Source: Nitrospirota bacterium
GTDB taxonomy: Bacteria; Nitrospirota; Nitrospiria; Nitrospirales; NS-4
DNA length: 38,948 bases
Direction: 5' to 3'
Assembly (NCBI GenBank): GCA_005877855.1
Contig: VBOF01000023.1
Span: forward strand, 1 to 38,948
Positions 1,112 to 38,948 of the stretch are shown here, piece after piece. The position numbers and the translations under genes are program-made. A model generated the notes under the pieces. The model searched no databases. It had not been told where the DNA came from and saw nothing but the letters and a program-made list of their open reading frames with translations. The stretch's first letter is position 1. Each line of letters opens with the position of its first letter.

Positions 1112-2516
<1,405 letters not shown>

Positions 2517-12374: not shown

Positions 12375-12485
12375 ACGTGTTGGCGCGCGCACGGCCCATG
12401 CGAAGGAATTCTAGACGCGGGTCTGGAAAGAGGCAAGGACAAACTGGTATAAGGGACCGCGGTTGAGGGCTGTTACTGGAACAAG

Positions 12486-23949: not shown

Positions 23950-23965
23950 TGGCAGAGTAATTGCT
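23950..23965 (+). promoter_or_regulatory. Sigma54 (-24/-12) promoter candidate upstream of pilin 1
   Basis: TGGCAG-AGTAA-TTGCT has the canonical GG/GC spacing of TGGCAC-N5-TTGC. It lies 75 nt upstream of the ATG at 24040. Type IV pilin genes are frequently RpoN/PilR dependent. Confidence 0.6.
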
Positions 23966-24039: not shown

Positions 24040-24522
24040 ATGCCCAATCGCGTGCCAAAGGGATCCCAGGGCTTTACCTTGATCGAGCTGATGATCGTGG
24101 TGGCGATCCTTGGTATCCTAGCGGCCATCGCCATCCCGAACTTTATGACCTACCAAGCCAAGGCTCGGCAGGCAGAGGTCAAGTCCATGCTTGCGGGTAC
24201 CTTCATGGCCGCTACCACAGTGATGTACGCGCAAAACGGAACGTATGTGATTACAGATATCGGTCAGCTTGGCTTTGCTCCGACCGGGACACCAAGGTAT
24301 TCCTACTGGTTTGACGTCAATGGTACACCTACACGCATCGTCGGTGGGAGCACCGCAACGGCTCCGTGCGACGTCAACAGCGCTCCAGTCGGAGTGGCAT
24401 CTTCAGGATCAGGATTTACGGCCGGAGCGAGGGGCAATATCGACAGTGATCCCACCTGTGACGATTGGCTCATCAATGACACCAAAATTCTCACGAATAT
24501 CAGCAATGATGTTACCAGCTAA
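24040..24522 (+). CDS. pilA: Type IV pilin (class III signal peptide), paralog 1
   Basis: MPNRVPKGSQG|[37 protein letters not shown] shows a prepilin cleavage site and Glu+5. Two C-terminal Cys are present. GAAGGA Shine-Dalgarno 6 nt before the ATG. The track ORF starts at an upstream GTG at 24019. Confidence 0.9.
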   Translation: MPNRVPKGSQGFTLIELMIVVAILGILAAIAIPNFMTYQAKARQAEVKSMLAGTFMAATTVMYAQNGTYVITDIGQLGFAPTGTPRYSYWFDVNGTPTRIVGGSTATAPCDVNSAPVGVASSGSGFTAGARGNIDSDPTCDDWLINDTKILTNISNDVTS

Positions 24523-24561: not shown

Positions 24562-24756
24562 CCATCTTCTCGGAAGCTTCAGAGTCACGGTTCAAGACTT
24601 TTGGACGTTTTCCTGGCAAAGATGGTTGCCCGGTGACGGCACGGGTATTGCTCTCTTTAAGAGGAAAGGCGACCGTGGGGCCAGGGGTGAGAGGATTCAA
24701 GAAGAGCGGATGGTACGGTCGTGAAGGATAACGTTTAACCACAAGGAGGGTTTGCG

Positions 24757-25215
24757 ATGTTGGATCGGATAAAAGGGAACAAGGGCTTCACCTTGATCGA
24801 ATTGATGATCGTGGTCGCGATCATCGGGATTTTGGCGGCGATCGCCATCCCGAACTTCATGACCTACCAGGCCAAGTCCCGGCAGTCGGAGGCTAAGGTG
24901 GGGCTTGGCGGTATCTTCACCACCGCGACGTCGTACTTCGCCGAGAATGGAACGTTCAGTGTCCTGCCCAGCGGCCTTGGCTACGCTCCGGCCGGGTCAC
25001 CGAAGTACACGTTCTCCTATAATGCGACTCAAATCAACACCGTCGCAACTGCCACTATTTGCAATGGCGTGACGACAGTTGTTGCGCCTGTTGCTACCGC
25101 CTCAGCGTTCACGTCCGGGGCCAGAGGCAATATTGACGGTGATCCCAGCTGTGACGAGTGGACGATCAATGACGTTCGGGCCCTGGTCAATACGGCCAAC
25201 GATGTGGCCAGTTAA
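24757..25215 (+). CDS. pilA: Type IV pilin (class III signal peptide), paralog 2
   Basis: [10 protein letters not shown]|[45 protein letters not shown] Shine-Dalgarno upstream. The C-terminal tail [18 protein letters not shown]...NDVAS is shared with paralog 1. Confidence 0.9.
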
Positions 25216-25243: not shown

Positions 25244-25277
25244 GAGGGCCCCCGAGTGGGGGCCCTCGATTCTTGTT
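25244..25277 (+). terminator. Rho-independent terminator after pilin 2
   Basis: Perfect 10-bp GC stem GAGGGCCCCC (25244-25253), loop GAGT, GGGGGCCCTC (25258-25267), followed by the T-rich GATTCTTGTT. Confidence 0.75.
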
Positions 25278-25320: not shown

Positions 25321-27288
25321 ATGCCAGTACAAGAATCCCGTCGCATTTATAGTCCGCTCGTCGTCCTGGGCGGTCTCACGATCTTCGCGCCGCTCATCGA
25401 CGGCGGGACCACGCATCTGCCGGTCCTGATCATCCGACTCACCCTCCTGGTGGCTGCGACGGTCTGGACCATTGCCTCGTTGAAATCCGGGCGGATCACT
25501 GTGCCGTGGAGCCGGCTCTTCGTCCCTATGGCGATTTTTCTGGGGTGGGCTACTCTCTCCATCCTCTGGTCTCCGTACACCGCGATCAGTCTCCAGTGGC
25601 TTCTCAGCCTCTTCAGCTATGCACTGATGCTGTTTTTCGTTCTGCTGCTTGTTGACTCGCCCTGGCAGGTTCGGGCTCTGGTGATGGTGATTCTGGGGAT
25701 GGGTCTCTTCGAAGCCGGGGTGGGGATGTACCAATATCTGTGGCTTCGCCAGCCCAGATCCACCGGGACCTTCTTCAATCCCAACTTTTTCGCGACCTAC
25801 GAGGTGGCCACCTTTGCGGTGGCCTTCGGGCTACTGTGCTTCCGGGGACGAGAAGATGGCTTCAGATGGGCAAACCCCCTGTTGTGGCTCACGCCCTTGG
25901 TGGTCGGACTTGCGTTTGTGCTGGCCCAATCACGAGGGGGCCTGCTGGCATTCGTGGCGTCTGGGGCATTCATTGGACTCTCACGGTTCGGCAAGCCCTT
26001 TCTGGGCATCCTCTTGCTGGGTTTCGTCCTAGGCGCTCTTGTTCCCAATCCTCTCCAGCAGAGGATTCTGGCGGTCGGAACGAAAGACCCTTACGCCTTT
26101 ACCCGGCTGGACATCTGGAAGAATTCAGTAGAGCGCATAGCCGATCACCCATGGGGCGTGGGTCTGGGAATCTACAAGTACACCTCATTCCGGTATCGCT
26201 TTCCCATCGAAGGGTCAATCGCGCGGTTCGCAAAGCGGGCGGAATCTGCCCACAATGACTACTTGCAAATGGCTGTGGAGTTAGGAGTGGTGGGGCTGGT
26301 CATGTTTCTGGTGGGCCTAGGGTTCTTGGGGTGGGAAATCAGGGAGACTTTGCGCCTTGGCCTGGCGCCCTGGGAAAGAGGGGCGGTCATCGGATTGAGC
26401 GGAGGGATCCTGGGTATCCTGACACATGGTGCCGTGGACGCGGTGTTTCATGAACCAGCGATCGTCCTTCTCCTCTGTCTGTTTGCGGGATTGATCTTGG
26501 TCCTGCGACGGATGAGGACGTCCGGTTCCTTCTCGGTTGTGGAGGTGCCATTTGCGTATCGACCCATCAGGGCAGTTTTGATCGTGGTTCTGGCTGCCTT
26601 GCTGGGCATTCTTGTCATCCGTCCAGCCGCCGCGTGGTACGCCTTTGACGAGGGAGAACGCGAAATGGCAGTCGGCCGTGTCGGTCACGCGTTGGATTGG
26701 TATCAATGGGCCACGTACATCGACCCCGGCACCAGCAGCTACCACGATGCCGTAGCGGCCACGCAGGTTCGTCTCTATCGGCAATTCGGGGCGGTGAAGC
26801 ACCTTCACGGCGCTGCCAGTGAGCTTCAGGTCGCCTTGGAACTGAACCCACTGGATGCCCGATTAGCCAATCAGTTGGGACAGCTCTTTGTCTTGCTTGC
26901 TGAACAAGCCCCCACGAAAACAGAGCGGCAGGCGTTGCTGGAGGACGCTGAAGGGCATTATGAACAGGCAAGCCAGCTGGATCCCTATTCGCCCTTCAAC
27001 TATTTCGAGCTGGGCAAGCTGCAATGGGCCCAGGGGCGTGTGCCTGAGGCGATGGCCTTGTTCACGCGGGCAACAAGTTACGAACCCAATTTCCTGCCAG
27101 CACGGCTTTACCTGGCCGAGCTCTTGTTAACGACTGGGCAGAAAGAGAGGGCAGCCTCGGAATACACCGAAATCCTGAACATCAAAGAACGCTACCAAGC
27201 ACGGGCTGCCACGAGCCTTGAGCGACAGTACCTGGAAGTCGACCTTGACCACCTCCGACGTTCATTGGCTAGGGTGGAGGCGTCATGA
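25321..27288 (+). CDS. O-antigen ligase family (Wzy_C) membrane protein fused to C-terminal TPR repeats
   Basis: 655 aa and polytopic. LAQSRGGLLAF and AESAHNDYLQMAVELGVVG are typical of the WaaL/PglL/TfpO family. The C-terminal ~220 aa are TPR-like (HYEQASQLDPYSPFNYFELGKL..., FTRATSYEPNFLPARLYLAELL...). Confidence 0.8.
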   Translation: MPVQESRRIYSPLVVLGGLTIFAPLIDGGTTHLPVLIIRLTLLVAATVWTIASLKSGRITVPWSRLFVPMAIFLGWATLSILWSPYTAISLQWLLSLFSYALMLFFVLLLVDSPWQVRALVMVILGMGLFEAGVGMYQYLWLRQPRSTGTFFNPNFFATYEVATFAVAFGLLCFRGREDGFRWANPLLWLTPLVVGLAFVLAQSRGGLLAFVASGAFIGLSRFGKPFLGILLLGFVLGALVPNPLQQRILAVGTKDPYAFTRLDIWKNSVERIADHPWGVGLGIYKYTSFRYRFPIEGSIARFAKRAESAHNDYLQMAVELGVVGLVMFLVGLGFLGWEIRETLRLGLAPWERGAVIGLSGGILGILTHGAVDAVFHEPAIVLLLCLFAGLILVLRRMRTSGSFSVVEVPFAYRPIRAVLIVVLAALLGILVIRPAAAWYAFDEGEREMAVGRVGHALDWYQWATYIDPGTSSYHDAVAATQVRLYRQFGAVKHLHGAASELQVALELNPLDARLANQLGQLFVLLAEQAPTKTERQALLEDAEGHYEQASQLDPYSPFNYFELGKLQWAQGRVPEAMALFTRATSYEPNFLPARLYLAELLLTTGQKERAASEYTEILNIKERYQARAATSLERQYLEVDLDHLRRSLARVEAS

Positions 27289-28163
27289 GCAGCGCTGGAC
27301 AGTATGCAGCGATTTCCACGTCTACTGTGATCCTCATCATGGGATTGCACTTCCTTCAGGTCCGGCTTGATGAGCAGCGCGCCCCCATCACGCAGTTTCA
27401 GCGGTTCATGTACTTACCTCAAGGCGAGCATTTGAAAATCGCCGCCTTGGGTTATCAACACGTGGTGGCCGATCTTCTCTGGATACAGGTTATCCAGGCT
27501 ATGGGAGAGCGTCAGGTGACAGAAGAAGCCGGCCACTGGATCTACCGGGCGTTGGATATCATCACCACATTAGACCCCAAGTTTGTCCGGGTCTATGAGG
27601 TCGGAGGCATCGCGCTGACGACGCTGGTAGTCCACATTGACGAGAGCAACCGGATCCTGGAGAAGGGGATCCAGCACAATCCTGACGTTTGGACGCTGCC
27701 CTTCTTGCTCGGGTTCAACTATTACTTCGAGTTGCATGATGACGCCAAAGCGGCCGACTATATCGCCAAGGCTTCCCGCCTCCCTGGGGCGCCCGAGTAC
27801 CTCGCGAGCTTCGCCACCCGGCTCTATGTCTCGGCTAGGGAGCCGCAAGTCGCCATCGACTTTCTGGCCCAGATGTATGAGCAGACCTCAGATGAGAACA
27901 TCAAACGGATCCTCGAGCAACGGCTGAAGGAGGTCGTGGTAGAGCGGGATCTCCAGCTGCTCGAGAGGGCCATTAGCCGATACCGGGAGCGGTACACACG
28001 GGCACCCGAGCGTTTAGAGGACTTGGTGACTTCAGGGCTCCTGCGCTCGTTGCCCCGCGAGCCGTTCGGTGGCCGCTACCTCTACGACCCGCAGACGCAG
28101 ACGGTGCGCAGCAGTGAGATGAAGGAACGGCTGAAAGTGTACGGCAAAAGGAGACCGCGATGA
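27285..28163 (+). CDS. Hypothetical membrane-anchored helical-repeat protein (positional PilG analog)
   Basis: 292 aa with an N-terminal TM helix (AAISTSTVILIMGLHFL) and a helical, TPR-like remainder. ATGA overlaps on both sides. I recognise no family with confidence. Confidence 0.5.
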   Translation: MSSAGQYAAISTSTVILIMGLHFLQVRLDEQRAPITQFQRFMYLPQGEHLKIAALGYQHVVADLLWIQVIQAMGERQVTEEAGHWIYRALDIITTLDPKFVRVYEVGGIALTTLVVHIDESNRILEKGIQHNPDVWTLPFLLGFNYYFELHDDAKAADYIAKASRLPGAPEYLASFATRLYVSAREPQVAIDFLAQMYEQTSDENIKRILEQRLKEVVVERDLQLLERAISRYRERYTRAPERLEDLVTSGLLRSLPREPFGGRYLYDPQTQTVRSSEMKERLKVYGKRRPR

Positions 28164-29089
28164 CCCCGATTCGCACAGACGGGCTGACCAAAGAGTTTCG
28201 TCTCGGCCTCGGTCGCCAACGCGTCGTGGCATTGGACCGCTTGAACCTGGAGGTGCACCAGGGCGAGATCTTCGGATTTCTGGGGCATAACGGGGCTGGC
28301 AAGACCACCACCATCAAACTGCTCTTGGGCCTGCTCGCCCCGACTGCCGGACAGGCCTGGATTCTGGATCGGCCGATCGAGGACGTCACCATCAAGCAAC
28401 AGGTGGGTTTTCTCCCGGAGGCCCCGTATTTCTATGAATACCTCACGGCAGAGGAGTTTTTGACCTTCTATGGACAGCTCTTTGGCCTTGGCGGAGCGCC
28501 GCTAACGAAGAAAGTCGAGGAGTTGTTGGAGATGGTCGCCCTGACCGACGCACGTCGTCTCCAGCTCAGAAAATTCTCGAAGGGCATGCTCCAACGGATC
28601 GGCTTGGCGCAGGCGTTAATCAATGACCCTGCCTTGGTCGTTCTGGACGAGCCCATGTCGGGGCTGGATCCCATTGGGAGGCGGGATGTTCGTGATATCA
28701 TACTTAGCCTCAAGGAAGAAGGGAAAACCGTGTTCTTCAGCACCCATATCCTCCCGGATGTCGAGATGATCTGCGATCGGGTGGGCATTCTCGTGCGGGG
28801 ACGTCTCCGGGCCGTGGGGACCGTCCAGGACTTGGTGGGAACAAGCGGCGTCGCTTCCGTCGAAATGGTCGTCGCGGGGCTGACCGACGCCGGCATTCAG
28901 GAAGCCGAGAGGCAAGGCGGGAAGGTGCTTCGCAGAGGAGCGCAGGTCTTGCTCAGACTGGATGATCCGAGCCGGGTGGACTCTCTTGTGGAGCTGGTTC
29001 TCCGATCGGGCGGCCGGCTGGTGTCTCTGGTGCCGCACAAGCGCACGCTGGAAGACCTTTTTCTTGAACAGGTGAAGGCAGGTCTTTGA
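28160..29089 (+). CDS. ABC transporter ATP-binding protein (ABC-2 subfamily)
   Basis: Walker A GHNGAGKTTT, signature variant FSKGMLQR, Walker B LVVLDEP and H-loop FSTH. Confidence 0.9.
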   Translation: MTPIRTDGLTKEFRLGLGRQRVVALDRLNLEVHQGEIFGFLGHNGAGKTTTIKLLLGLLAPTAGQAWILDRPIEDVTIKQQVGFLPEAPYFYEYLTAEEFLTFYGQLFGLGGAPLTKKVEELLEMVALTDARRLQLRKFSKGMLQRIGLAQALINDPALVVLDEPMSGLDPIGRRDVRDIILSLKEEGKTVFFSTHILPDVEMICDRVGILVRGRLRAVGTVQDLVGTSGVASVEMVVAGLTDAGIQEAERQGGKVLRRGAQVLLRLDDPSRVDSLVELVLRSGGRLVSLVPHKRTLEDLFLEQVKAGL

Positions 29090-29856
29090 TGAGCCGGATC
29101 ATTGTGATTGCGCTGAACACCTTCAAAGAGAATCTCCGAGACAAGATTCTCTATAACCTGGTGTTCTTTGGCCTGCTCTTGATCGGCAGTTCGATTCTGT
29201 TGAGCACCTTGACCATGGGGGAGCAGGCCAAGATCATTCAAGACATTGGGCTGGCAAGCATCAATCTCTTCGGTGTCATCATCGCGATCTTCGTCGGGAT
29301 CGGTTTGGTCAGCAAGGAGATTGAGAAGCGGACCATTTATACGATCCTTGCGAAGCCCGTTCAGCGGTATCAATTTCTTCTCGGACGGTACTGCGGATTG
29401 GCTCTCATTCTTTTGGTCAATACTGCGATCATGGTGGTGGGGTTTTTTTTCATTCTCCTCGTCGGAAAGATCAGCCTGGGCTCAGGACTCATCAAGGCGA
29501 TTAGCTTGATCTATATCGAGCTCTTGGTGATCGTGGCAGTGGCCGTCATGTTTTCCAGCTTCACGACGCCGACGCTGAGCGCCAGTTTTACCTTGGCGAT
29601 TTGTGTCATTGGCCATCTGACCGCTGATCTCAGGGTGCTGGGCGCCAAGCTCCAGAATGAGCTGACGAAGGGGATTCTTGACGGACTGTACTACATGCTT
29701 CCCAACCTCGAGTACTTCAACGTGAAGGGCCCGGCTGTGCACGGCATTGCGATCGCGCCGCTGTACGTCGTCTCAGCGATAGCCTACGGGGTCCTCTACA
29801 GCGCGGTGATTTTGCTGATCTCCTGCGTGATCTTCCAGCGAAGGGATTTCAAATGA
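29089..29856 (+). CDS. ABC-2 type transporter permease
   Basis: ~255 aa with six predicted TM helices. The ATG at 29089 overlaps the ATPase stop (TGATG). The track start is TTG at 29086. Confidence 0.75.
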   Translation: MSRIIVIALNTFKENLRDKILYNLVFFGLLLIGSSILLSTLTMGEQAKIIQDIGLASINLFGVIIAIFVGIGLVSKEIEKRTIYTILAKPVQRYQFLLGRYCGLALILLVNTAIMVVGFFFILLVGKISLGSGLIKAISLIYIELLVIVAVAVMFSSFTTPTLSASFTLAICVIGHLTADLRVLGAKLQNELTKGILDGLYYMLPNLEYFNVKGPAVHGIAIAPLYVVSAIAYGVLYSAVILLISCVIFQRRDFK

Positions 29857-30662
29857 CCTCCCCACCCCCACGCGCAAGATCACCGCACCGAGGCCGGGAC
29901 GATCTGAGTCGATTCCAGCGGCTCCAGGTCGAGCATTTCGCGCGCGCGGATGAGGCCAAGTTCCTGTGGCAGACACAGGACGCATACTTAGCCAAGACCG
30001 AGCGAGCGCTACTGGACCGCGTCCCGGTGAAGAGCTCCGATCGGTTGCTGGAGGTGGGATGCGGCGAAGGCGGTAATCTCCAACTGCTGGGGCTCACTCC
30101 CCTGAGTGCGGTGGGCGTTGATTTCTCCCACGCCAAGGTCAGCTGGGCTCGGCATCATTGTGGGGCGGCTAGGTTCGTGTGTGCGGATGGGACACGCCTT
30201 CCCTTCCAGGACGAAACATTCGATGTGGTCTTATGCCGGGATGTCCTCCACCACACCGTAGACAAGTCAGAAGTGGTCGGAGAGCTCATCCGTGTGTGCC
30301 GCGCATTCGGACGAGTCGTGATCATCGAGCCCAACGGCGGCAGTCCGATCGTAGGATTGCTAGGCCTGCTGGTGGAGGCGGAGCGCGAGCTACTCCGAAA
30401 CTCGTTGGGCGGCGTGCTCGCACTGCTGGATCGAGGACAAGTCGCCGAGCCCGATGTGAGCTGGGCGCAGCCGTTTCCCGCAGGCCGGGTGTTATTCCAC
30501 TACCGCTGGGGGCTGCCTCGTCTCTCTGCCTGGTTAGCGGGCGCGGTGCTTGCGGCTGAGCGGCTGATCGGCCGGCTCGTGCCGACGGAACGATGGGCGT
30601 ACATGATCATCACAACGGTCAAGACCGCCTCGGGCAAACCAGTCGTCTCCGAAAGCGTATGA
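29853..30662 (+). CDS. Class I SAM-dependent methyltransferase
   Basis: Motif I LLEVGCGEGGNL, then FDVVLCRDVLHH and GRVVIIEPN. ATGA overlap with the permease gene. Confidence 0.8.
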   Translation: MTSPPPRARSPHRGRDDLSRFQRLQVEHFARADEAKFLWQTQDAYLAKTERALLDRVPVKSSDRLLEVGCGEGGNLQLLGLTPLSAVGVDFSHAKVSWARHHCGAARFVCADGTRLPFQDETFDVVLCRDVLHHTVDKSEVVGELIRVCRAFGRVVIIEPNGGSPIVGLLGLLVEAERELLRNSLGGVLALLDRGQVAEPDVSWAQPFPAGRVLFHYRWGLPRLSAWLAGAVLAAERLIGRLVPTERWAYMIITTVKTASGKPVVSESV

Positions 30663-30672
30663 GGATCAATCT

Positions 30673-32166
30673 GTGAGACTGCAACAAGAACGCGCGGTTC
30701 CCCGGTTTCAGCCATCCGGCAACGGTCAAGCGACGGCGCCTCGCGTCGTCAGTTCCACAGACAAGGCGCGTGCCTTTTTCGATGCGCTCGCACCGACGCG
30801 GGATCGCGACAAGACGCGTCACTGGTATTACTACCGGTACCTGACGGCGTTTCTCCAGTTCGTTGTGCCACCGGGGCAGCGGGTGCTCGAGGTGGGATGC
30901 GGGACCGGAGATCTTCTGGCCGCTGTCGATCCGGTGGTCGGGGTCGGCCTGGACATCAGCCACGCCATGCTCACGATCGCGCGGCGCAAATACCCACACC
31001 TACATTTTGTCCAGAGCGATGCCCATGGTCCTGCTCTGTCCGGTCGCTTCGACTACATCATCCTCTCAGACCTTGTCGGGGATCTGGAAGATGTGCAGGA
31101 GGCCTTTGCCCGCTTGAAACACTTGGCGGGTCCCGGAACCCGTCTGATCATCACGTATTACAACTACCTGTGGGAACCCGTGCTCAAGCTCGCGGAGCGC
31201 CTGGGGCTCAAATCTCCGCAGAACGTCCAGAACTGGTTGCCAGTAGACGACATCGAGGGGTTTCTCGCGCTCTCTGGCTTCGCGACGATCCGCAAGGGCT
31301 ACCGGCTCCTCCTTCCCGTGTACCTTCCCGGCCTGTCCTGGTGCTGCAACACCATCCTGGCGCATCTGCCGGGGGTACGCCGCCTCTGCTTGACCCAATA
31401 CCTCATCGCGCGGGTCGCGCCTGATCCGGCCGACCGTCGCGAGTACTCGTGTTCGGTGATCGTTCCGTGCCGGAACGAGGCCGGGAACATCAGGGAGATC
31501 GTCAACCGGACGCCGTCGCTCGGAGCGGGCACCGAGGTCATCTTTGTGGACGGTAATTCCACCGATGGCACCGTGGATCGCATCCAAGAAACCATCGCGA
31601 GCTATGAGGGACCCAACACGATCCGGTTGATCCACCAGGGCGAAGGGGTTGGGAAGGGCGATGCGGTGCGCAAAGGATTCGAGGCGGCCACGGGGGAGCT
31701 GCTCATCATCCTGGACGCAGACGTGAGCGTGGATCCTGAGGCGCTCCCCAAGTTTTACCACGCGATCGTTGAAGGCCATGGCGAATTCGCTAACGGGAGC
31801 CGCATGGTGTATCCCATGGCGAGTCAGGCGATGCGCCTGCTCAATCTGATCGGCAACAAGGTCTTCAGCATGATCTTTACCTGGCTCCTGGAACAACGCC
31901 TCCGGGACACCCTCTGTGGGACGAAGGCGTTGCTCCAACGGGACTACGAGAAGATCAAGGCCGGCCGATCTTACTTCGGCGACTTCGATCCATTTGGCGA
32001 CTTCGATCTCCTGTTCGGCGCGGCCAAGCAGAACCTGAAAATCGTGGAACTGCCGGTCCGCTACCGGGATCGCACGTACGGGGAGACCAAAATCAGCCGA
32101 TTCCGGCATGGTCTGCTCCTGCTGCGGATGTGTTGGATCGCCTACAAGCGGTTCAGGCTCTATTGA
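30673..32166 (+). CDS. Fusion protein: N-terminal SAM methyltransferase plus C-terminal GT2 polyprenol-phosphate glycosyltransferase (DPM1/GtrB/ArnC-like)
   Basis: N-terminal domain: VLEVGCGTGDLL and FDYIILSDLVGDLED. C-terminal domain: CSVIVPCRNEAGNI, VIFVDGNSTDGT, GKGDAVRKG, ILDADVS and RTYGETKIS. GTG start 7 nt after GAGGA. Confidence 0.8.
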   Translation: MRLQQERAVPRFQPSGNGQATAPRVVSSTDKARAFFDALAPTRDRDKTRHWYYYRYLTAFLQFVVPPGQRVLEVGCGTGDLLAAVDPVVGVGLDISHAMLTIARRKYPHLHFVQSDAHGPALSGRFDYIILSDLVGDLEDVQEAFARLKHLAGPGTRLIITYYNYLWEPVLKLAERLGLKSPQNVQNWLPVDDIEGFLALSGFATIRKGYRLLLPVYLPGLSWCCNTILAHLPGVRRLCLTQYLIARVAPDPADRREYSCSVIVPCRNEAGNIREIVNRTPSLGAGTEVIFVDGNSTDGTVDRIQETIASYEGPNTIRLIHQGEGVGKGDAVRKGFEAATGELLIILDADVSVDPEALPKFYHAIVEGHGEFANGSRMVYPMASQAMRLLNLIGNKVFSMIFTWLLEQRLRDTLCGTKALLQRDYEKIKAGRSYFGDFDPFGDFDLLFGAAKQNLKIVELPVRYRDRTYGETKISRFRHGLLLLRMCWIAYKRFRLY

Positions 32167-32225
32167 GAAAGCGTGGCGCGGCTGGCTGCGGACGCTGAAG
32201 GCCTTCTTGAGATGGGAGCGTGGTT

Positions 32226-33383
32226 ATGAGAGTGCTGGCGGTTGTGCCCCCCGATCCATGGGTGGAGGTGAATGTGCTGCAAACGCTTCGCCAGCACTAC
32301 TGCGAAGACCTCTATGTCTTCCTTTGTCCGGAAGAGAACCAATTGGGACTCCGACAGTGGAGGGCCCGACGCGATGCCTTAAACGAAGACTTGGTACGTC
32401 TCGCAGGAAGCCTTCGATCAACCGGGCGTCTGGACGTGATCTTTTTCATTGTTTACGACGATTTTCTGACAGTCGAGACCGCAAAGAGATTGCGGGCCAT
32501 GGGCGTGGCGATGATCAATTACCATATCGACATGGTCTTCCAGTGGTATCGGGTCATCCGTACGGCTCCATTCTTTGACTTGCTCGCGGTCGCCCAAATG
32601 TCGAATGCTGAGCATCTGGCCGCCTACAATCCGAATATCGAATGGATGCCCATGGCCGCGAATCCGAGCTTTTATCACTCGCGTGCGGGAACCGTCCCCG
32701 CTTACCAGTACCAAGTTTCGTTCATCGGCAGTTTTAATCCATACCGACGTGCGCTACTCGCCGAGTGCGTTCGAAGAAACCTCACTCCGGTAGTATTCGG
32801 ACAGGGCTGGCGGAGTGGGGAGTCCCAGGGTCGGAAATTCAAATGGGACCCGTATAAGGTGCTTCACGATCTTCGATTTTATGCGGTGCCGCGATGGCGG
32901 GTAGAGGGGCTTGCAAGCGTGACGGGTCCGATCACGCGAAAGTATTCGCGGTGGCGCGCGTTAAAGCCTCCCGCCGGCCTGGATTGCCGAGGACCCTGCG
33001 AGACCGAAGCGCTCCCCGCCATTTTCAGAGTCAGCCAGGTGAATCTGGGCTTCTCCGACACAGGCTGGCACAGCAAGAAAGGCATTGTTCGATCCGGGAT
33101 GCTGCAGTGTCGCCTTCGAGACTTCGAAGTCCCCATGTCCGGAGGGTTTTATCTGGTTCAGGAAGCGCCAGACCATCGCGAATATTACGTGATCGGCAAA
33201 GAGATTGAGACGTGGTCTGCGCCCGAAGAGCTCGTCGATAAGGTGAAGTTTTATTCCCGTAACGAAGAAGCCGCTCGGCGAATTCGTGAAGCCGGACAGA
33301 AACGGGCGCTTGAAAGTCACACCTGGCGCCATCGGTTTGATCGCCTGTTTGTTCGACTGCGATCGGTCGGAAGGCTGTCGTGA
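32226..33383 (+). CDS. CgeB-like glycosyltransferase (DUF3880 / Glyco_trans_1_2 type)
   Basis: Contains FIGSFNPYRRALL, and the C-terminal LRDFEVPMSGGFYLVQ...ELVDKVKFYSRNEEAARRIREAGQKRALESHTW resembles CgeB/YkvP family tails. ATG at 32226 behind GGGAG. Confidence 0.55.
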   Translation: MRVLAVVPPDPWVEVNVLQTLRQHYCEDLYVFLCPEENQLGLRQWRARRDALNEDLVRLAGSLRSTGRLDVIFFIVYDDFLTVETAKRLRAMGVAMINYHIDMVFQWYRVIRTAPFFDLLAVAQMSNAEHLAAYNPNIEWMPMAANPSFYHSRAGTVPAYQYQVSFIGSFNPYRRALLAECVRRNLTPVVFGQGWRSGESQGRKFKWDPYKVLHDLRFYAVPRWRVEGLASVTGPITRKYSRWRALKPPAGLDCRGPCETEALPAIFRVSQVNLGFSDTGWHSKKGIVRSGMLQCRLRDFEVPMSGGFYLVQEAPDHREYYVIGKEIETWSAPEELVDKVKFYSRNEEAARRIREAGQKRALESHTWRHRFDRLFVRLRSVGRLS

Positions 33384-33402
33384 GTGCCTGGATAGAAGCG
33401 AG

Positions 33403-34242
33403 ATGAACCTACAAGAGGCTGAAAGTAGCACGATCCTGATCACACCTGCCCAGGGCTGGGTCTCACTGCACCTGAAAGAACTTTGGGAGTATCGGGAGCT
33501 TTTCTATTTCCTGGTCTGGCGGGACATGAAGGTTCGTTATAAGCAGACCATTCTAGGCGTGGCATGGGCAATCCTCCAACCGGTCTTCACGATGTTCGTG
33601 TTCACGGTCTTTTTCGGCTGGCTGGCTCACATGCCTTCTGATGGAGTGCCCTATCCCATCTTTGCCTACTCCGCGTTGCTGCCCTGGCAATTATTTGTCC
33701 GGTCGCTAACTGCCTCGAGCAATAGCGTGGTGGCGAATGAGAACCTCATCACGAAAGTGTACTTTCCACGGCTTGTGGCGCCTCTCTCTGCGACGGTGGC
33801 TGGCGTGTTGGACTTCGCGATTGCCTCTGTGGTGCTGTTCGTCATGATGTGGTTCTACCATATTGTACCAACGAGTGCTGTGTGGTTGCTCCCATTGTTC
33901 GTGCTGCTGGCGATCGCCACCGCATTAGGCGTTGGATTATGGCTCTCGGCGTTGAACGTACAGTATCGCGATGTGGGACATGCCATCCCATTCCTGACAC
34001 AAATCTGGTTGTTTGTTACGCCGATCGTCTATCCCAGCAGCCTAGTACCGGAGCCATGGCGCATCGTGTATGGGCTTAATCCGATGGTCGGTGTGGTCGA
34101 GGGTTTCCGGTGGTCGTTGTTGGGAACGGGAAGCGGACCTGGCGGCATACTGACGGCATCGACGTTGGTAGCCTGCGCGTTACTGGTCTCCGGCATGTTC
34201 TATTTTCGTCGCATGGAGCAAACGTTTGCGGATACGGTGTGA
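33403..34242 (+). CDS. wzm: Polysaccharide ABC exporter permease (ABC-2, Wzm/TagG type)
   Basis: LWEYRELFYFLVWRDMKVRYKQTILGVAWAILQPVFTMFVFTVFFG is the hallmark Wzm/KpsM N-terminal motif. ATG at 33403; the upstream part of track ORF 33286.. overlaps the previous gene. Confidence 0.85.
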   Translation: MNLQEAESSTILITPAQGWVSLHLKELWEYRELFYFLVWRDMKVRYKQTILGVAWAILQPVFTMFVFTVFFGWLAHMPSDGVPYPIFAYSALLPWQLFVRSLTASSNSVVANENLITKVYFPRLVAPLSATVAGVLDFAIASVVLFVMMWFYHIVPTSAVWLLPLFVLLAIATALGVGLWLSALNVQYRDVGHAIPFLTQIWLFVTPIVYPSSLVPEPWRIVYGLNPMVGVVEGFRWSLLGTGSGPGGILTASTLVACALLVSGMFYFRRMEQTFADTV

Positions 34243-34245
34243 GCC

Positions 34246-35556
34246 ATGGGTGATACTGCCATCCGTGTAGAAAACGTATGCAAACGCTATCGCATCGGCC
34301 AGCGCCAACGGTACAAGACTCTCCGTGACGCGCTGTTTGGCGTCATGGGTACGCCGTTTCGAGGCCTAGGTGCGTGTTTGAGTGGTCAAGGTACATCGAA
34401 GAGCTATCAGGAATCAGACAACTTTATCTGGGCGCTCAAAGATGTATCCTTTGAGGTCAAGCGTGGAGAAGTCATTGGCGTCGTCGGGCGGAATGGGGCT
34501 GGCAAGAGCACGCTCCTGAAAATTCTGTCTCGTATCACTAAGCCTACGAAGGGCTTCGCGGAGATCCATGGCCGTGTGGGGTCGTTGCTGGAAGTGGGCA
34601 CCGGTTTTCATCCGGAACTGACTGGTCGCGAGAACATTTACCTGAACGGCGCCATTCTCGGAATCAAGAGAAAGGACATAGATCGCCGGTTCGATGAGAT
34701 CGTGGCTTTTGCCGAGGTGGAGAAGTTTATTGATACTCCCATTAAGCATTATTCGAGCGGGATGTACCTGCGCTTGGCTTTTGCCGTAGCCGCCCACCTA
34801 GAGCCGGAAATTCTGCTGGTGGACGAGGTGCTTGCCGTAGGTGATGTCGCCTTCCAGAAAAAATGTATGGGCAAGATGGGAGATGTGGCCAAAGAAGGAA
34901 GGACAGTGCTGTTGATAAGCCATAATATGGCGGCGGTGGAAAACCTGTGCCAGCGAGGGGTGGTCCTTCACCAAGGGCAGATCACATATATCGGTAACCA
35001 GGCTGAGGCTATCGCTCAATACCTGAAAAGCCTAAGCGGGAACGCGCTCTCTTTGATGGATCGAAAGGACCGCATTGGATCCGGCGCCGTGCGAGTGGTC
35101 GGCATCGAAGTAAAAGATGTGCATGGGAATACCCTTGATTCTGTAGCCAGTGCTCAAGACCTGGATCTTTACCTTTACTTCGTGACCGCAACCGGTTTCC
35201 GCAGTCGGAGGGTCATTGCCAGCCTGCTTTTGAAGACTCAGTTGGATGTGCCAGTCTTTCTCCACCACAATCGGCTGACCGGCGATGAGTTTGGGGAATT
35301 GCCTGAATCGGGCGCCTTTGTCTGTCGTTTGCAACGGTTGCCGCTGCCGCCCTCCACCTACCAGATTACGTACAGCATCCTGGCAGATGGAGAGTGCCTC
35401 GATGGGATCACCAATGCTGTCGAGATGACGGTCGTCGAGGGTGATTTTTTCGGGTCTGGCGAGGTTCCGCCGATCAGTCACGGCGTGTGCTTGGCCGAGG
35501 GCAGGTGGAGGCTACTGCCCGGGTGCGCTCCTTCGGGTCTCAGAAGGCAGTCATGA
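34246..35556 (+). CDS. wzt: Polysaccharide ABC exporter ATPase with C-terminal glycan-binding (Wzt_C-like) domain
   Basis: Walker A GRNGAGKSTLLK, signature YSSGMYLRLAFA and Walker B LLVDEVLAVGD. An extra ~170 aa beta-rich C-terminal domain is present, as in Wzt proteins that recognise capped O-polysaccharide. Confidence 0.85.
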   Translation: MGDTAIRVENVCKRYRIGQRQRYKTLRDALFGVMGTPFRGLGACLSGQGTSKSYQESDNFIWALKDVSFEVKRGEVIGVVGRNGAGKSTLLKILSRITKPTKGFAEIHGRVGSLLEVGTGFHPELTGRENIYLNGAILGIKRKDIDRRFDEIVAFAEVEKFIDTPIKHYSSGMYLRLAFAVAAHLEPEILLVDEVLAVGDVAFQKKCMGKMGDVAKEGRTVLLISHNMAAVENLCQRGVVLHQGQITYIGNQAEAIAQYLKSLSGNALSLMDRKDRIGSGAVRVVGIEVKDVHGNTLDSVASAQDLDLYLYFVTATGFRSRRVIASLLLKTQLDVPVFLHHNRLTGDEFGELPESGAFVCRLQRLPLPPSTYQITYSILADGECLDGITNAVEMTVVEGDFFGSGEVPPISHGVCLAEGRWRLLPGCAPSGLRRQS

Positions 35557-36203
35557 GCAGGAACCTGGTATCCCACATCCGACAGGTGGTGAGGGCTTTC
35601 GTTGGTCGTGACGATCTTACCGAGCCGCTTGAGGTGAAACGGTCTGAGTGGAGGTTCTATCTAGATTATTTGCCGAGCAGCGCGGGGTTCAAACAGTTGA
35701 AAACCGCTTGTGAGTTATCCGGTCGAAGCAATATCGTGTTGAGCAACGTCGCGTTGGCGGACCGAGAGGGTGTTGTCAAACTGCATGTCTATGATCGCGA
35801 CCACCTGAGTTGGAGCTCCCTGGCCGAACGCCCTTTGCATAGATATGGACTTCCCGTGCAGTCAGTGGGGACAGAGGAGGTTCTGGCAACCACTGTTGAC
35901 GCCTTTTGTGAGAAAAATGCCATCTCCCGGATCGACTTGCTCAAAATAGATGTTGAAGGCGCGGAGTATCAGGTCCTGCTTGGCGCGCGATGCATGCTGC
36001 AAGAGAAACGCGTCCGCTGTTGCGTTTTCGAATTTGGCGCGACCACGTTCGATATGGGCAACGACCCTGACGCCATTGAGGACTACTTAACTGGATTGGG
36101 CTATCGGCTTCGCAATATCGTGAGCCGAGATCCCGTCTTCCCCGGGCGCACTGGTGCCGAGGCGGCGCGCTTTTCCATGCACGTGGCGACACCTGAGCCA
36201 TGA
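35553..36203 (+). CDS. FkbM-family methyltransferase-like protein, N-terminally degenerate
   Basis: NVALADREGVVKLHV and LLKIDVEGAEYQVLLGA are typical of FkbM/Methyltransf_21. The expected DxGANxG SAM loop is not visible. ATGA overlap with wzt. Confidence 0.6.
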   Translation: MSRNLVSHIRQVVRAFVGRDDLTEPLEVKRSEWRFYLDYLPSSAGFKQLKTACELSGRSNIVLSNVALADREGVVKLHVYDRDHLSWSSLAERPLHRYGLPVQSVGTEEVLATTVDAFCEKNAISRIDLLKIDVEGAEYQVLLGARCMLQEKRVRCCVFEFGATTFDMGNDPDAIEDYLTGLGYRLRNIVSRDPVFPGRTGAEAARFSMHVATPEP

Positions 36204-36949
36204 TACGAGAAGCCTCTTGGATGCTGCGATATGCCGGCCGTTCGCTTCGCGACACGGTGCGCGCATGGCCCCGTGGACTTGCTGGATGGAAGAAATTCTG
36301 GGCGAGCTATCTGCAGTATACGCGGATGGCTCCGTCGGACCGACAGCCGCTGGTGGGTTTTTTATATCCCTGCCTGGGCGATGATACGGCAGAAACTCCC
36401 ATCGAGCCCACGTACTTCTACCAGGATGCCTGGGCGTTTGAAAAAATAGTGCGAAACCGCCCCGTTCGACATGTAGATGTCGGCTCTCACTACAAGTTCG
36501 TCGCGTTGCTTTCGAAAGTCGTTCCGGTCACGATGGTGGATTTGCGACCGCTCTCGCTGCCCCTCGACTCAGTCGCATTTGAGAAGGGTTCGATTTTGAA
36601 TTTGCCCTTCGCGAGCCGCTCGGTGCCCTCCGTCTCCAGTCTGTGTGTTGTGGAACACATCGGCTTGGGGCGCTACGGCGACCCCCTCGACTCGTTCGGT
36701 TCTGAACAGGCTATTCAGGAACTCAGGCGTGTTGTCCAGCCCGGTGGAGACCTGTACGTGTCCGTTCCTCTCGACGACGAGAATCGCGTCTATTTCAACG
36801 CGCATCGGGCTTTTCGCGAGGACTACGTACTGAAGTTGTTCGAGCCCTTCCAGGTTGTGGAGCGCCGGTATATCTATGGCAAAACTTTTACTGACCGACT
36901 TCAGCCAGGGTTCGGCATAGGGTGCTATCACCTGAAATGCAGGTGTTGA
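36200..36949 (+). CDS. SAM-dependent methyltransferase-like protein (DUF268/Methyltransf_11-like)
   Basis: HVDVGSHYKFVALL..., ILNLPFASRSVPSVSSLCVVEHIGLGRYGD and VVQPGGDLYVSVP. ATGA overlap with the preceding gene. Confidence 0.55.
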   Translation: MIREASWMLRYAGRSLRDTVRAWPRGLAGWKKFWASYLQYTRMAPSDRQPLVGFLYPCLGDDTAETPIEPTYFYQDAWAFEKIVRNRPVRHVDVGSHYKFVALLSKVVPVTMVDLRPLSLPLDSVAFEKGSILNLPFASRSVPSVSSLCVVEHIGLGRYGDPLDSFGSEQAIQELRRVVQPGGDLYVSVPLDDENRVYFNAHRAFREDYVLKLFEPFQVVERRYIYGKTFTDRLQPGFGIGCYHLKCRC

Positions 36950-36998
36950 GCGAGGCTCGCATGAATTTCCTCGCAATGATTCTGCGGTAGGGCACGGT

Positions 36999-37721
36999 AT
37001 GATGGGACAGCTCATACATGGGGACCTTCCTAAGGAGCTCATGCTGCAACTGAAAGGAAAATACGCCTTGGAAGATTTCATCGAGACGGGGACCTATCAA
37101 GGCGGCACAGCCGTGTGGGCCGCGGCTCATTTCGATCGTGTGACCACTATCGAGTTTTCAAGGTCCCTCTATGAGGAGACGAAGGCCCAGCATGACGGGG
37201 CATCGAACCTAAGTTTTCTATTCGGAGATTCGCGAGAGGCCTTGCGCGCGATTGTCCCCACGCTCCAGCAACCCGCCATTTTCTGGTTGGACAGCCATTG
37301 GAGCGGCGGCCAGACCTATGGCCAGAATGACGAATGTCCGCTGCTTGAAGAAATTGAAGCAATCACCTCATCTGTGCACACACATTTTCTGTTCATCGAT
37401 GACGCACGGTTGTTTGCCGCCCCGCCGCCTCGGCCGCATCGAATAGACCAGTGGCCGACGATTGATGAAGTCATTGGCGCGCTCACCTCTACAAGTCACA
37501 GATATTACATCGTTATCATTGAGGATGTAATTGTGGCCGTCCCTGAACACGCGCGGGCCCTTGTCGCTAGCTATTGTCAAGAGGTGAATACAAGAGCCTG
37601 GCAAGAGTTTGGGAGAAACCGAGAAAAAGGCGTGAAAAGAAACGGATTGCAAAGAATGATGCAAAGGCTCGGTGCATTGGCTTATGGCTTGCGCATGCCG
37701 TTCAAGCGCTTTCGGTTCTGA
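36999..37721 (+). CDS. Class I methyltransferase-fold protein (Methyltransf_24/CmcI-like)
   Basis: FIETGTYQGGTAVWAA, TTIEFS, FLFGDS, IFWLDSHW and FLFIDDARLF resemble macrocin/CmcI-type sugar O-methyltransferase folds. Confidence 0.45.
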   Translation: MMGQLIHGDLPKELMLQLKGKYALEDFIETGTYQGGTAVWAAAHFDRVTTIEFSRSLYEETKAQHDGASNLSFLFGDSREALRAIVPTLQQPAIFWLDSHWSGGQTYGQNDECPLLEEIEAITSSVHTHFLFIDDARLFAAPPPRPHRIDQWPTIDEVIGALTSTSHRYYIVIIEDVIVAVPEHARALVASYCQEVNTRAWQEFGRNREKGVKRNGLQRMMQRLGALAYGLRMPFKRFRF

Positions 37722-37745
37722 GAGTCCGACGAGCATGAGAAGGCG

Positions 37746-38948
37746 ATGATCCCCCTTCATCCGGTAACAGACGTCGATCACGCGTGCCCCCATTGTCACG
37801 TCCGGTTGGGGGTGAAAGGCTGGTATATCCCTGGGATGCGCAACCTGGCGGAACTGGCATGCTCGCAGTGTGGGCGAGAGTTTTATGGCGATTTGCCTGC
37901 CGGTCATGGTCTGCACTATCCAATGCTCCTGGAGAAGGCCACCGGGGTGGTACATGATCGAGTCTCGGTGCCGTGGTTCTCAGAGTGGCTGTACGCGTCC
38001 TACACCCAAAGGCGAAGCGAGCCACTCAGCCTGCACGTGGAAGAATACAAGCCAGTCCGACGCGCCGTGCTCCTGAACTGCTTGGATTTCCGCTATGGAC
38101 ATTGCTTGCTGAAGTTGCTCAACGCACAACACTACCTGGATCGCAGGCCTGATCTCGGACTGATTGTTCTGGTGCCACGCTACTTGCGGTGGTTGGTGCC
38201 CGAGGGCGTCGCCTCGATCTGGACGGTGGATCTGCCTCTCAGCAGGGGGATCGAGTGGAACGACTGGCTAGGCCAGGAGATCCATCGCCGAATAGAGGAA
38301 CTGGAGGAGTGCTATTTGAGCGTGGCTTTCTCGCATCCGCACCCGGACGACGTTGCCATCGAGAAGTTTACACGTGTCACGCCTTTCCCAGTGCACGAAT
38401 GGGAAGAACGCCTGTATAGGCCGACGGTCACATTCATCTGGCGAGGCGACCGTCTCTGGATCGGCGCGCCTTCTGACGGAATTCCCGAAGGAGAGATAGG
38501 GAGCTCTTCATGCGCCACTCTTGAGCAATCTCTGAAAATCGTCACACTTGCAACCCGTTTGAGAAAACGATTACCGGGTCTCGATTTTGCGGTTGCTGGG
38601 TTGGGGAAGCCAGGAGGGCTGCCAGAGTGGATTCTCGACTTGCGTATGACGACCCCTGACGAGGAGGCGGAACGTAGATTATGCCAACGATACGCGCGCA
38701 GTCATGTGATCATGGGCGTCCACGGCTCAAGCATGCTGCTCCCGTCTGCTCACGCAGGAGCCGTCATCGAGCTGATGCCAGAGGAAAGGTGGGGCAACGC
38801 ATTGCAGGACCTTCTTTTGCGCAAGGGCGATCTGCGGGAGGCACTTTTCCGTTGCCGCGTTTTACCACTCACCCTTTCGGTCGATGCGCTTTGCAATGTC
38901 GTGGTGTCGCTGTTGGACAAATGGACGGGGATGTTGCTGCATATGCAA
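37746..38948 (+). CDS. Hypothetical protein, 3' end beyond the window: N-terminal Zn ribbon plus a GT61/DUF563-like C-terminal motif
   Basis: Not in the supplied ORF track because no stop is reached. My own translation from ATG 37746 is open for 401 codons to the window end. It reads MIPLHPVTDVDHACPHCHVRL...CSQCGREFYGD (CxxC...CxxC), and later HVIMGVHGSSMLLPSAHAGAVIELMPEERW resembles the GxHGAxLxN...viEl motif of family 61 glycosyltransferases. Confidence 0.6.
   Translation, partial: MIPLHPVTDVDHACPHCHVRLGVKGWYIPGMRNLAELACSQCGREFYGDLPAGHGLHYPMLLEKATGVVHDRVSVPWFSEWLYASYTQRRSEPLSLHVEEYKPVRRAVLLNCLDFRYGHCLLKLLNAQHYLDRRPDLGLIVLVPRYLRWLVPEGVASIWTVDLPLSRGIEWNDWLGQEIHRRIEELEECYLSVAFSHPHPDDVAIEKFTRVTPFPVHEWEERLYRPTVTFIWRGDRLWIGAPSDGIPEGEIGSSSCATLEQSLKIVTLATRLRKRLPGLDFAVAGLGKPGGLPEWILDLRMTTPDEEAERRLCQRYARSHVIMGVHGSSMLLPSAHAGAVIELMPEERWGNALQDLLLRKGDLREALFRCRVLPLTLSVDALCNVVVSLLDKWTGMLLHMQ

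Follow-up and report, generated by a model that had tools for sequence, protein, structure and literature searches.

A conserved Nitrospirales locus joining type IV pilins, a TPR-bearing Wzy_C ligase and a variable Wzm/Wzt glycan island: a candidate system for pilin O-glycosylation

Some type IV pilins are glycosylated by enzymes that are encoded right beside them. TfpO (PilO) and TfpM of Pseudomonas, Acinetobacter and Moraxella are of this kind. They modify the C-terminal Ser/Thr of the pilin, and TfpM is able to transfer long chains, including the O2a antigen of Klebsiella pneumoniae, which is made by an ATP-binding cassette (ABC) transporter-dependent pathway (PMC9829042). Both are enzymes of 420-470 amino acids (aa) without an accessory domain (PMC9829042, Table 2). 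Here, a locus of related design is described from a Nitrospirota bacterium (contig VBOF01000023.1, positions 1 to 38,948; this whole stretch of 38,948 nucleotides (nt) is called the window). In it, two type IVa pilin genes are followed by the gene of a Wzy_C-family glycan ligase with a tetratricopeptide repeat (TPR) domain, then by a trio of genes of the PilG, PilH and PilI type, and finally by an island of glycan genes with a Wzm/Wzt transporter. It is proposed, with a probability of about 0.5, that the locus carries out an ABC-transporter-dependent O-glycosylation of the adjacent pilins. Most likely, a methyl-capped polysaccharide is attached by it to the pili (or to the cell surface).

Other described systems resemble single parts of this locus. 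The S-layer glycan (slg) clusters of Geobacillus stearothermophilus and Paenibacillus alvei encode an ABC-transporter-dependent O-glycosylation of protein. Their Wzy_C transferase either has a TPR motif itself or is neighboured by a TPR protein; Wzm/Wzt and a methyltransferase-glycosyltransferase fusion, which makes the terminal methyl cap, are also encoded, and the GC content is low (PMC2943079). In the ABC route of Escherichia coli O8/O9a, as it is cited in that paper, the chain is completed on undecaprenyl diphosphate (Und-PP) and capped; the cap is bound by a carbohydrate-binding module (CBM), and the chain is then exported and ligated (PMC2943079). On the side of the pilus, Myxococcus xanthus has the gene order pilA-pilG-pilH-pilI(-pilD), of which the trio is required for pili (PMC3724824; PMC6060248). 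In Geobacter, the pilA-proximal ABC gene xapD (GSU1501) affects exopolysaccharide (bioRxiv 10.1101/114900) and lies, by gene number, a few genes past pilC/pilS (GSU1493/1494) (PMC5585712). The kind of each module and the logic of joining them are, then, already known. What is new is a TPR-bearing, PilG-coupled ligase next to the pilins, a glycan island in the same array, and the conservation of this arrangement over a whole order. A search of the literature turned up no relevant paper on Nitrospira in connection with pilin, O-antigen ligase, waaL or glycosylation.

The genes form an unbroken series on the plus strand from 22049 to the end of the window. The chain under study begins 3' of a hairpin that follows the second pilin gene, and it consists of three modules, namely the Wzy_C ligase with its TPR, the PilG/H/I-type trio, and a low-GC island for a glycan exported by Wzm and a CBM-bearing Wzt. 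The pilin region and the first two modules are as follows (ORF, open reading frame, is used below for genes without a name).

22049 to 23866, plus strand: 605-aa secreted TPR protein (Pfam TPR families), between dnaB and the pilins
23950 to 23965, plus strand: sigma-54-type -24/-12 element TGGCAG-N5-TTGCT, one mismatch, 75 nt before the start codon of pilin 1
24040 to 24522, plus strand: type IVa pilin 1, ending in ...NDVTS (N_methyl, Pilin_PilA)
24637 to 24652, plus strand: sigma-54-type -24/-12 element CGGCAC-N5-TTGCT, one mismatch, 105 nt before the start codon of pilin 2
24757 to 25215, plus strand: type IVa pilin 2, ending in ...NDVAS (N_methyl, NCBIfam)
25244 to 25267, plus strand: G+C-rich hairpin, terminator or attenuator, between pilin 2 and the ligase gene (10 pairs, 9 of them G-C)
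25321 to 27288, plus strand: candidate Wzy_C-family glycan ligase/O-oligosaccharyltransferase, 655 aa, with C-terminal TPR (Pfam Wzy_C and TPR)
27285 to 28163, plus strand: 292-aa membrane-anchored helical-repeat (TPR-like) protein in the PilG position (by gene context)
28160 to 29089, plus strand: ABC ATPase in the PilH position, DrrA/GldA-like (ABC_tran, NCBIfam)
29089 to 29856, plus strand: ABC-2 permease in the PilI position (ABC2_membrane_2, 57 bits)

As with TfpO and TfpM, the gene of a Wzy_C enzyme lies here directly 3' of a pilin gene. The acceptor of those enzymes is a C-terminal Ser/Thr, and Ser is the last residue of both window pilins; the donor would likewise be an Und-PP-linked surface glycan from a pathway of the O-antigen type. 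The differences concern the enzyme as well as its surroundings. The ligase falls outside the size range of TfpO and TfpM, with an extra helix, a TPR of ~200 residues and a coupling to the PilGHI-type trio, and its glycan genes are found in the same array, whereas in those systems they are at a distant O-antigen locus. Further, a C-terminal Ser/Thr is not universal among the relatives. The likeness is one of domain and gene position.

For the comparison within the order, the window proteins were mapped by tblastn onto 83 non-redundant related loci, and the denominators of the gene counts that follow are the numbers of loci where the gene in question could be seen. The best 80 genome loci all belong to Nitrospirales or Nitrospira, and the relatives of the ligase are named Nitrospirae or Nitrospirota; an exact match to the ligase protein was absent from the assembly collection. 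Over 80 species-representative Nitrospirales genomes, the series of pilin, hairpin, ligase and PilGHI-like trio is kept with hardly an exception, and the cultured N. moscoviensis and N. defluvii carry the same core. The order of genes in the mapped loci was found to be near-invariant. It starts with serC, serA, a hisS-like gene and dnaB (54/55 loci), and continues with the TPR protein (a homologue of the 605-aa protein in 59/61), the pilin or pilins, the ligase, the 292-aa gene (78/78), the ABC ATPase (68/68) and the ABC-2 permease (68/68). A pilin gene stands upstream of the ligase gene in 72/73 loci.

Past the ABC-2 gene, the picture is a different one. The 371 island ORFs of 68 loci, nearly all on the plus strand, fall into 125 families, 72 of which are singletons. 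The widespread families are just those of Wzt (48 loci), Wzm (45) and the Glyco_trans_1_2 gene (24). In the islands of the relatives, other methyltransferases (class I, TylF and CmcI-type) are found along with epimerases/dehydratases, UDP-glucose dehydrogenase, AsnB-type amidotransferases, and glycosyltransferases (GT) of families GT4 and GT9. Nevertheless, a Wzm/Wzt homologue follows 19-6307 nt past the ABC-2 gene in 49 of the 53 loci that extend at least 7 kb beyond it, and Wzt_C is present in those Wzt proteins of relatives that were checked. The layout is that of a conserved core followed by a serotype-like variable glycan island, and the ligase belongs to the conserved pilus core, outside the island. 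Comparative genomics had been put forward in the original prediction for this stretch as the way to see whether the gene set co-occurs with the pilins. The counts above bear this out for the ligase and the trio, and relatives with their glycan genes far from the pilins were not seen, Wzm/Wzt lying within 6.3 kb of the core in those 49 loci.

The Wzy_C domain (PF04932) of the ligase covers residues 193-330 and scores 69.9 bits, the cut-off being 31.7. The gene starts 105 nt past that of pilin 2. In an alignment of 12 ligase sequences, reaching down to 49% identity, two motifs are invariant, QSRG (Q203-S204-R205-G206) and AHN(D/E)YLQM (with H311); these may hold the counterparts of the catalytic Arg and His that enzymes of the Wzy_C superfamily, such as WaaL, PglL and TfpM, have in the large periplasmic loop. 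The AlphaFold2 (AF2) model has an overall pLDDT (predicted local distance difference test) of 74, with the catalytic loop poorly modelled (pLDDT < 50). It places nine helices ahead of the Wzy_C loop, another three behind it and one more at residues ~415-437, followed by the TPR at 454-654. In WaaL, there are 12 helices, and both ends are cytoplasmic. The ligase is modelled with 13 membrane helices, and because the extra helix is added to the usual Wzy_C topology, its TPR domain of ~200 residues would be periplasmic, beside the catalytic loop. A PDB sequence search and a Foldseek search with the ligase model gave TPR proteins only (OGT, MamA, designed TPRs), which is uninformative on the choice between a WaaL and an O-oligosaccharyltransferase.

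At its 3' end, the ligase gene shares 4 nt with the 292-aa gene in 58/79 loci. The next junction is looser, as 40/73 loci have a gap of more than 30 nt there. In the closest other species (loci L006 and L012), the flanking housekeeping genes are 93-96% identical to those of the window, while the pilins have 63-69% and the ligase 62-64% identity; therefore, the pilins and the ligase evolve much faster than their neighbours. It was also considered whether the divergence of the ligase tracks the type of glycan. This is not obviously so, the ligase being ~62% identical in both L012, where Wzm is 30% identical, and L013, where it is 74%.

Both pilins have the class III leader G|FTLIELM. The best NCBIfam match of pilin 1 is typeIV_PilA_Myxo, under the cut-off. 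The related pilins share a common tail, ...NDV(S/T/A). Among 105 unique related pilins, which are not phylogenetically independent, the last residue is Ser/Thr in 44, and one of the final three residues is Ser/Thr in 67; the overall Ser+Thr composition is 17%. Such a C-terminal Ser/Thr is, then, an enrichment and no rule. The consensus of sigma-54 has three matches with one mismatch in the whole window, two of them being 5' of the pilin genes, which suggests a control by PilR and sigma-54, as in Myxococcus, Geobacter and Pseudomonas. The 605-aa TPR protein upstream reaches 136 bits with NCBIfam type_IV_pilW (cut-off 154) and can be called PilW/PilF/Tgl-like by this weak score.

The first protein of the trio, of 292 aa, begins with a membrane helix, after which come helical repeats, and no match to it was found in Pfam, NCBIfam or PDB. 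Its AF2 model is of low confidence (pLDDT 63.6), and Foldseek returned weak helical-repeat matches, none at E <= 0.001. A profile search, on the other hand, gave 4634 cluster representatives at E <= 0.001, and four of these distant homologues (L108, L109, L110 and L111; library E-values 1e-42 to 1e-53 for the last three) were looked up in their genomic surroundings. In L109, the order is a PilB/PilT-type ATPase, PilC, PilS, PilR, a pilin, ABC, ABC-2, the 292-aa homologue, PilM, PilN, PilO, an unnamed ORF in the PilP position and a secretin. L110 has a TPR protein, two pilins, the 292-aa homologue, ABC, ABC-2 and another TPR protein. In L111, ABC-2 and the homologue are followed by a prepilin peptidase, a PilR-like regulator and minor pilins, and in L108, ABC, ABC-2 and the homologue stand together without pilus genes nearby. 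Since homologues of the 292-aa protein sit with ABC and ABC-2 genes in complete type IV pilus clusters that have no glycan genes, the trio is assigned to the pilus. This context supports a type IV pilus component of the PilGHI type and not a second glycan exporter. The name 'PilGHI-like' given to these genes earlier is thereby upheld, while the accompanying claim of two ABC exporters cooperating on the glycan is not.

The surroundings of these homologues are arrangements known from the pilA-pilG-pilH-pilI(-pilD) genes of M. xanthus, where PilG, PilH and PilI have the locus tags MXAN_5782-5780. The trio of the window shares with M. xanthus a non-ABC membrane protein, an ABC ATPase and an ABC-2 permease 3' of pilA, as judged by gene order and context. 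It is conserved in 68-78 loci, though in Nitrospirales the Wzy_C/TPR ligase is inserted between pilA and the trio. Residues ~250-275 of the 292-aa protein, at the end of its best-modelled part (LPREPFGGRYLYDPQTQTV), presumably resemble the GspG-type pseudopilin motif LPxDPWGxxYxY, a likeness that we take as a lead only.

A side observation concerns L110, where proteins of 761 and 811 aa (L110:4344-6629 and L110:11044-13479) flank the pilin pair and the PilGHI-like trio. Each has an N-terminal region of ~500 residues without a family match and C-terminal TPRs. Sugar-modifying genes, namely a GT2, an acetyltransferase, a DegT and a methyltransferase, are also found alongside. The arrangement may be another pilin modification system made of a membrane enzyme and TPRs.

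The third module, the glycan island, occupies the rest of the window. Several of its enzymes depend on S-adenosylmethionine (SAM).

29853 to 30662, plus strand: class I SAM methyltransferase, first island gene (Methyltransf_11, 74 bits; homologue in 3/68 loci)
30673 to 32166, plus strand: methyltransferase-GT2 (Glycos_transf_2) fusion (Pfam; found in 7/68 loci)
32226 to 33383, plus strand: Glyco_trans_1_2 (CgeB-like) glycosyltransferase (74.9 bits; 24 loci, usually directly after ABC-2)
33403 to 34242, plus strand: Wzm, ABC-2 permease (ABC2_membrane, 68.8 bits; NCBIfam Wzm/KpsM-like, under cut-off)
34246 to 35556, plus strand: Wzt ATPase with C-terminal carbohydrate-binding Wzt_C (ABC_tran, 78.7 bits; Wzt_C, 37.8 bits, cut-off 30.4)
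35553 to 36203, plus strand: FkbM-family methyltransferase (Pfam match starting at profile position 47)
36200 to 36949, plus strand: DUF268/Methyltransf_11-like methyltransferase (Pfam)
36999 to 37721, plus strand: 240-aa ORF, possible methyltransferase (Methyltransf_24, E = 0.18, weak; no PDB match)
37746 to 38948, plus strand: first 401 aa of a 634-aa protein whose start resembles a Cys4 zinc ribbon, cut by the end of the window (full length from L089)

The permease Wzm, for which the start ATG 33403 is preferred to GTG 33286, and a Wzt with Wzt_C are together what marks an ABC-transporter-dependent polysaccharide pathway. The GT2 part of the fusion is closest to AglJ and to polyprenyl-phosphate hexose transferases (its NCBIfam matches are all under the cut-off). 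The GC content falls from 0.61-0.70 upstream to 0.54-0.63 in the island.

Compared with six metagenome contigs that are 98-99% identical, the FkbM gene of the window has an in-frame gap of 102 nt (34 codons) at 35673/35674. The missing segment, as read in L088, one of the six, encodes RPGMVVFDVGAYAGELTLLFSRFVVEAGRVYAFEA and holds the SAM-binding Gly-rich motif VFDVGAYAGE. Judging by this loss, the window copy is probably inactive; the deletion could be an error of the assembly, or else the strains may differ in how they methylate the glycan.

Most of the domain labels proposed at the outset agreed with Pfam. One exception was the last ORF, called GT61-like, a label that is rejected as unsupported; for its 401 aa, no match was obtained in Pfam, NCBIfam or PDB. 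As for the three methyltransferase-like genes behind Wzt, FkbM and DUF268 could be recognised as such, and the 240-aa ORF only faintly. Where five to six methyltransferase domains had been counted, four exceed the Pfam cut-off in the window, one of them being without its SAM motif, and a fifth lies on the extension described below.

The genes of the chain are packed tightly. Stop and start codons overlap as ATGA at 27285, 28160, 29853, 35553 and 36200, and as TGATG at 29087-29091. The gaps are 10 nt from the first methyltransferase to the fusion gene, 53-59 nt from there to the Glyco_trans_1_2 gene, ~19 nt to Wzm (with ATG 33403 as its start) and 3 nt from Wzm to Wzt, and the remaining ones after Wzt are 49 and 24 nt. 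The six overlaps, as well as the other gaps of 3-59 nt, confirm the tight same-strand chain of the original prediction. It had also seen no terminator after 25244, and the consensus scan agrees; the sole strong terminator-like hairpin is that at 25244-25267, and the other 22 matches (stems of 5-8 pairs with 3-5 G-C) are all intragenic. A scan for sigma-70-like sites found none in the intergenic gaps of the chain and five in total, which is not above chance (6.0 +/- 2.7 expected). The chain may well be co-transcribed.

The length of 13.6 kb that had been given for the chain is too short, as the array continues for ~5 kb past 38948 on a metagenome contig of 99% identity (the contigs used for the extension are 98-99% identical to the window). 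From the start of the ligase gene, it measures at least ~18.7 kb, all on the same strand. After the 634-aa ORF, the extension carries a 326-aa ORF (no Pfam match), a GT47-like glycosyltransferase, a second FkbM methyltransferase and a 530-aa ORF (no Pfam match).

With the whole island in view, the locus can be set beside the two precedents for the glycan pathway. The gene set of the slg clusters (WsaB/WsfB, Wzm/Wzt, WsaE) is matched here at the level of domains only; in both, the GC content is below that of the genome and the gene of a target protein, putative in our case, is nearby. Here, in contrast, the organism is a diderm of the Nitrospirales, the candidate acceptor is a type IV pilin instead of an S-layer protein, no WsaP-type initiating enzyme or rml genes are in view, and there are more methyltransferase genes. 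With E. coli O8/O9a and Klebsiella (Wzm, Wzt-CBM, WbdD), the locus shares Wzm and a Wzt with a C-terminal CBM, capping methyltransferases (a role that is presumed here), the lack of Wzx/Wzy (here among the ORFs scanned), and presumably an initiating enzyme outside the cluster. It differs in that the ligase is in the same array beside the pilins and not in the waa core cluster, and in that no WbdD-like kinase or coiled-coil ruler was identified.

A Wzm/Wzt pathway predicts a lack of Wzx/Wzy, and it is common for the initiating transferase to be encoded elsewhere. The absence of Wzx/Wzy, of an initiating transferase and of a pilus motor, noted at the outset, was seen again among the large window ORFs scanned, several of which gave no match at all. 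The earlier verdict that the locus is not canonical is not supported; the missing Wzx/Wzy is expected, and TfpO/TfpM (PMC9829042) and the slg clusters (PMC2943079) are precedents.

The proposed pathway would work as follows. An initiating transferase encoded elsewhere would prime undecaprenyl phosphate, on which cytoplasmic glycosyltransferases (the GT2 fusion, the Glyco_trans_1_2 enzyme and the GT47-like enzyme beyond the window) would lengthen the chain. The SAM methyltransferases would O-methylate the chain and cap its non-reducing end. Wzt_C would then recognise the cap, and the finished Und-PP-glycan would be exported via Wzm/Wzt. Once in the periplasm, the glycan would be moved en bloc by the ligase to its acceptor. 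The likeliest acceptor would be the adjacent pilins, at or near the Ser/Thr-rich C-terminus, before or during the assembly of the pilus.

In favour of pilin glycosylation, it counts that the ligase has a pilus-specific element on either side (pilA and the PilGHI-type trio) and that methyltransferases recur in the otherwise different islands of the relatives. Several observations weigh on the other side. Pilin glycosylation is here a prediction from the genes. The ligase has 655 aa with a TPR, as against 420-470 aa without a TPR in TfpO/TfpM; none of its NCBIfam scores passes the cut-off, and in the structure search only its TPR part was matched. An initiating transferase is absent from the scans of the window and from the 5-kb extension as well. 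Many related pilins end in ...NDVAL, ...NDVAK or ...NDVGA, and GT9 (heptosyltransferase-family) genes in the islands of four relatives hint at lipopolysaccharide (LPS). Neighbouring genes also share a recombination history, so that conserved linkage by itself is no proof of a common function. Lastly, a hairpin of -15 kcal/mol or lower follows the last pilin gene in 73/75 loci (median -29.6) and parts the pilins from the ligase; its sequence varies from locus to locus. This conserved hairpin and the sigma-54-like elements indicate that the pilins are transcription unit(s) of their own, separately promoted and terminated or attenuated. The link between pilins and glycan genes claimed by the original prediction thus holds as conserved synteny (pilin in 72/73 loci), while a continuity of the chain with the pilins is not supported.

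The strongest competing explanation, though clearly the less probable one, is that the ligase is a WaaL. It would join the methyl-capped polysaccharide exported by Wzm/Wzt to lipid A-core, the island would be an O-antigen locus, and the adjacency to pilA and pilGHI would be biochemically meaningless. The Wzy_C domain is common to WaaL and the ligase. Moreover, Wzm, Wzt_C, methyltransferases, low GC and extreme variability between species are the textbook signature of an ABC-dependent O-antigen, with which the GT9-family genes of the four relatives and the pilins lacking a C-terminal Ser/Thr are in keeping. The position and build of the ligase speak against it. Its place is in the pilus core that is conserved, with pilA on one side and the trio on the other, and in 58/79 loci there is translational coupling to the trio. 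A typical WaaL has ~400 aa, 12 helices and no TPR or other extra domain, its gene is linked to LPS core genes, and its acceptor is lipid A-core; the ligase departs from this with its 13 inferred helices and its putatively periplasmic TPR domain, and LPS core genes were absent among the scanned ORFs of the window. A mixed version is possible, in which one Und-PP-glycan serves both LPS and pilin. In Pseudomonas aeruginosa 1244, the O-antigen unit is used for both. Should the ligase be a WaaL, what is left is an O-antigen locus in a place that is unusual but conserved.

It is improbable that the modules are merely independent neighbours, with the pilus core and the island as separate transcription units, the island sitting in a recombination hot spot, and the ligase taking its donor glycan from another locus. 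Such independence would fit with PilGHI-type trios that occur elsewhere without glycan genes, with the 4/53 loci that have no Wzm/Wzt within 7 kb, with an island boundary exactly after the ABC-2 gene, and with gaps of 49-59 nt that could hold promoters outside the sigma-70 scan. It would hardly explain why a Wzm/Wzt pair on the same strand is kept in 49/53 species despite a complete turnover around it; in the window, the ABC-2 gene and the first island gene also overlap by 4 nt, and no strong hairpin lies within the chain.

Least probable is a PilGHI-like ABC-2 transporter acting as a second exporter of glycan or lipid-linked sugar (for example, by flipping a polyprenyl-phosphate sugar from the AglJ/GtrB-like GT2 fusion, so that one methylated glycan would be handled jointly with Wzm/Wzt and the ligase). 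In its favour are the tight overlaps from the ligase through the trio to the first methyltransferase, the likeness of the GT2 domain to polyprenyl-phosphate hexose transferases as its closest kin, and YfhO-like GT-C genes, users of such donors, which lie upstream at 4640-11785. Against it, the trio is present in all loci and the GT2 fusion in 7/68 only, homologous trios sit in pilus clusters without glycan genes, and PilG, PilH and PilI of M. xanthus are required for pili (PMC3724824).

Elsewhere in the window lie trpC, a PilZ-domain gene, bioD/bioF-like genes, three to four YfhO-like genes, a methyltransferase, and TPR and SLT/LysM genes, followed by serC, serA, the hisS-like gene and dnaB. 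Rfam and tRNA scans of the window were empty. The following features are of some interest in themselves.

722 to 1087, minus strand: gene of a small PilZ-domain protein, ~23 kb upstream of the pilins
1112 to 1504 and 1465 to 1974, minus strand: overlapping ORFs of a split bioD-like gene (AAA_26)
4640 to 12392, minus strand: three to four paralogous genes of YfhO-like (GT-C) membrane proteins, then a class I methyltransferase
9411 to 10892 and 10622 to 11785, minus strand: overlapping ORFs of a split YfhO-like gene

The pair of YfhO and methyltransferase also adjoins serC in L004. GT-C enzymes use polyprenyl-phosphate sugars, a type of donor that the AglJ/GtrB-like GT2 fusion might make. The two split genes, the ORFs of which match the N- and C-terminal parts of the respective Pfam models, may represent frameshifts, pseudogenes or sequencing errors.

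Among the Nitrospirales are the main nitrite oxidisers and the complete ammonia oxidisers found in soils, waters and treatment plants. In the flocs and biofilms that these bacteria inhabit, it is pili and surface glycans that determine how the cells attach and aggregate and how susceptible they are to phages and grazers. A bolder version of the proposal, which we regard as rather unlikely in its full extent, is that pili throughout the order carry long methyl-capped chains from Wzm/Wzt, attached by a new class of TPR-bearing pilin O-oligosaccharyltransferases that is physically coupled to the PilGHI machine via its translationally coupled TPR-like partner. Glycosylation would then take place as the pilin is drawn out of the membrane for assembly, and the hypervariable island would define a pilus 'serotype' of the species or strain, perhaps under the pressure of phages or grazers. 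If the ligase is indeed a pilin O-oligosaccharyltransferase for long chains of the ABC pathway, a TPR-bearing class would be added to the few enzymes available for bioconjugate engineering. A function is also suggested for the neighbourhood of the long-enigmatic PilGHI module. An order-wide locus that joins pilins, a ligase and a serotype-like island thus offers a testable handle on the surface biology of the Nitrospirales.

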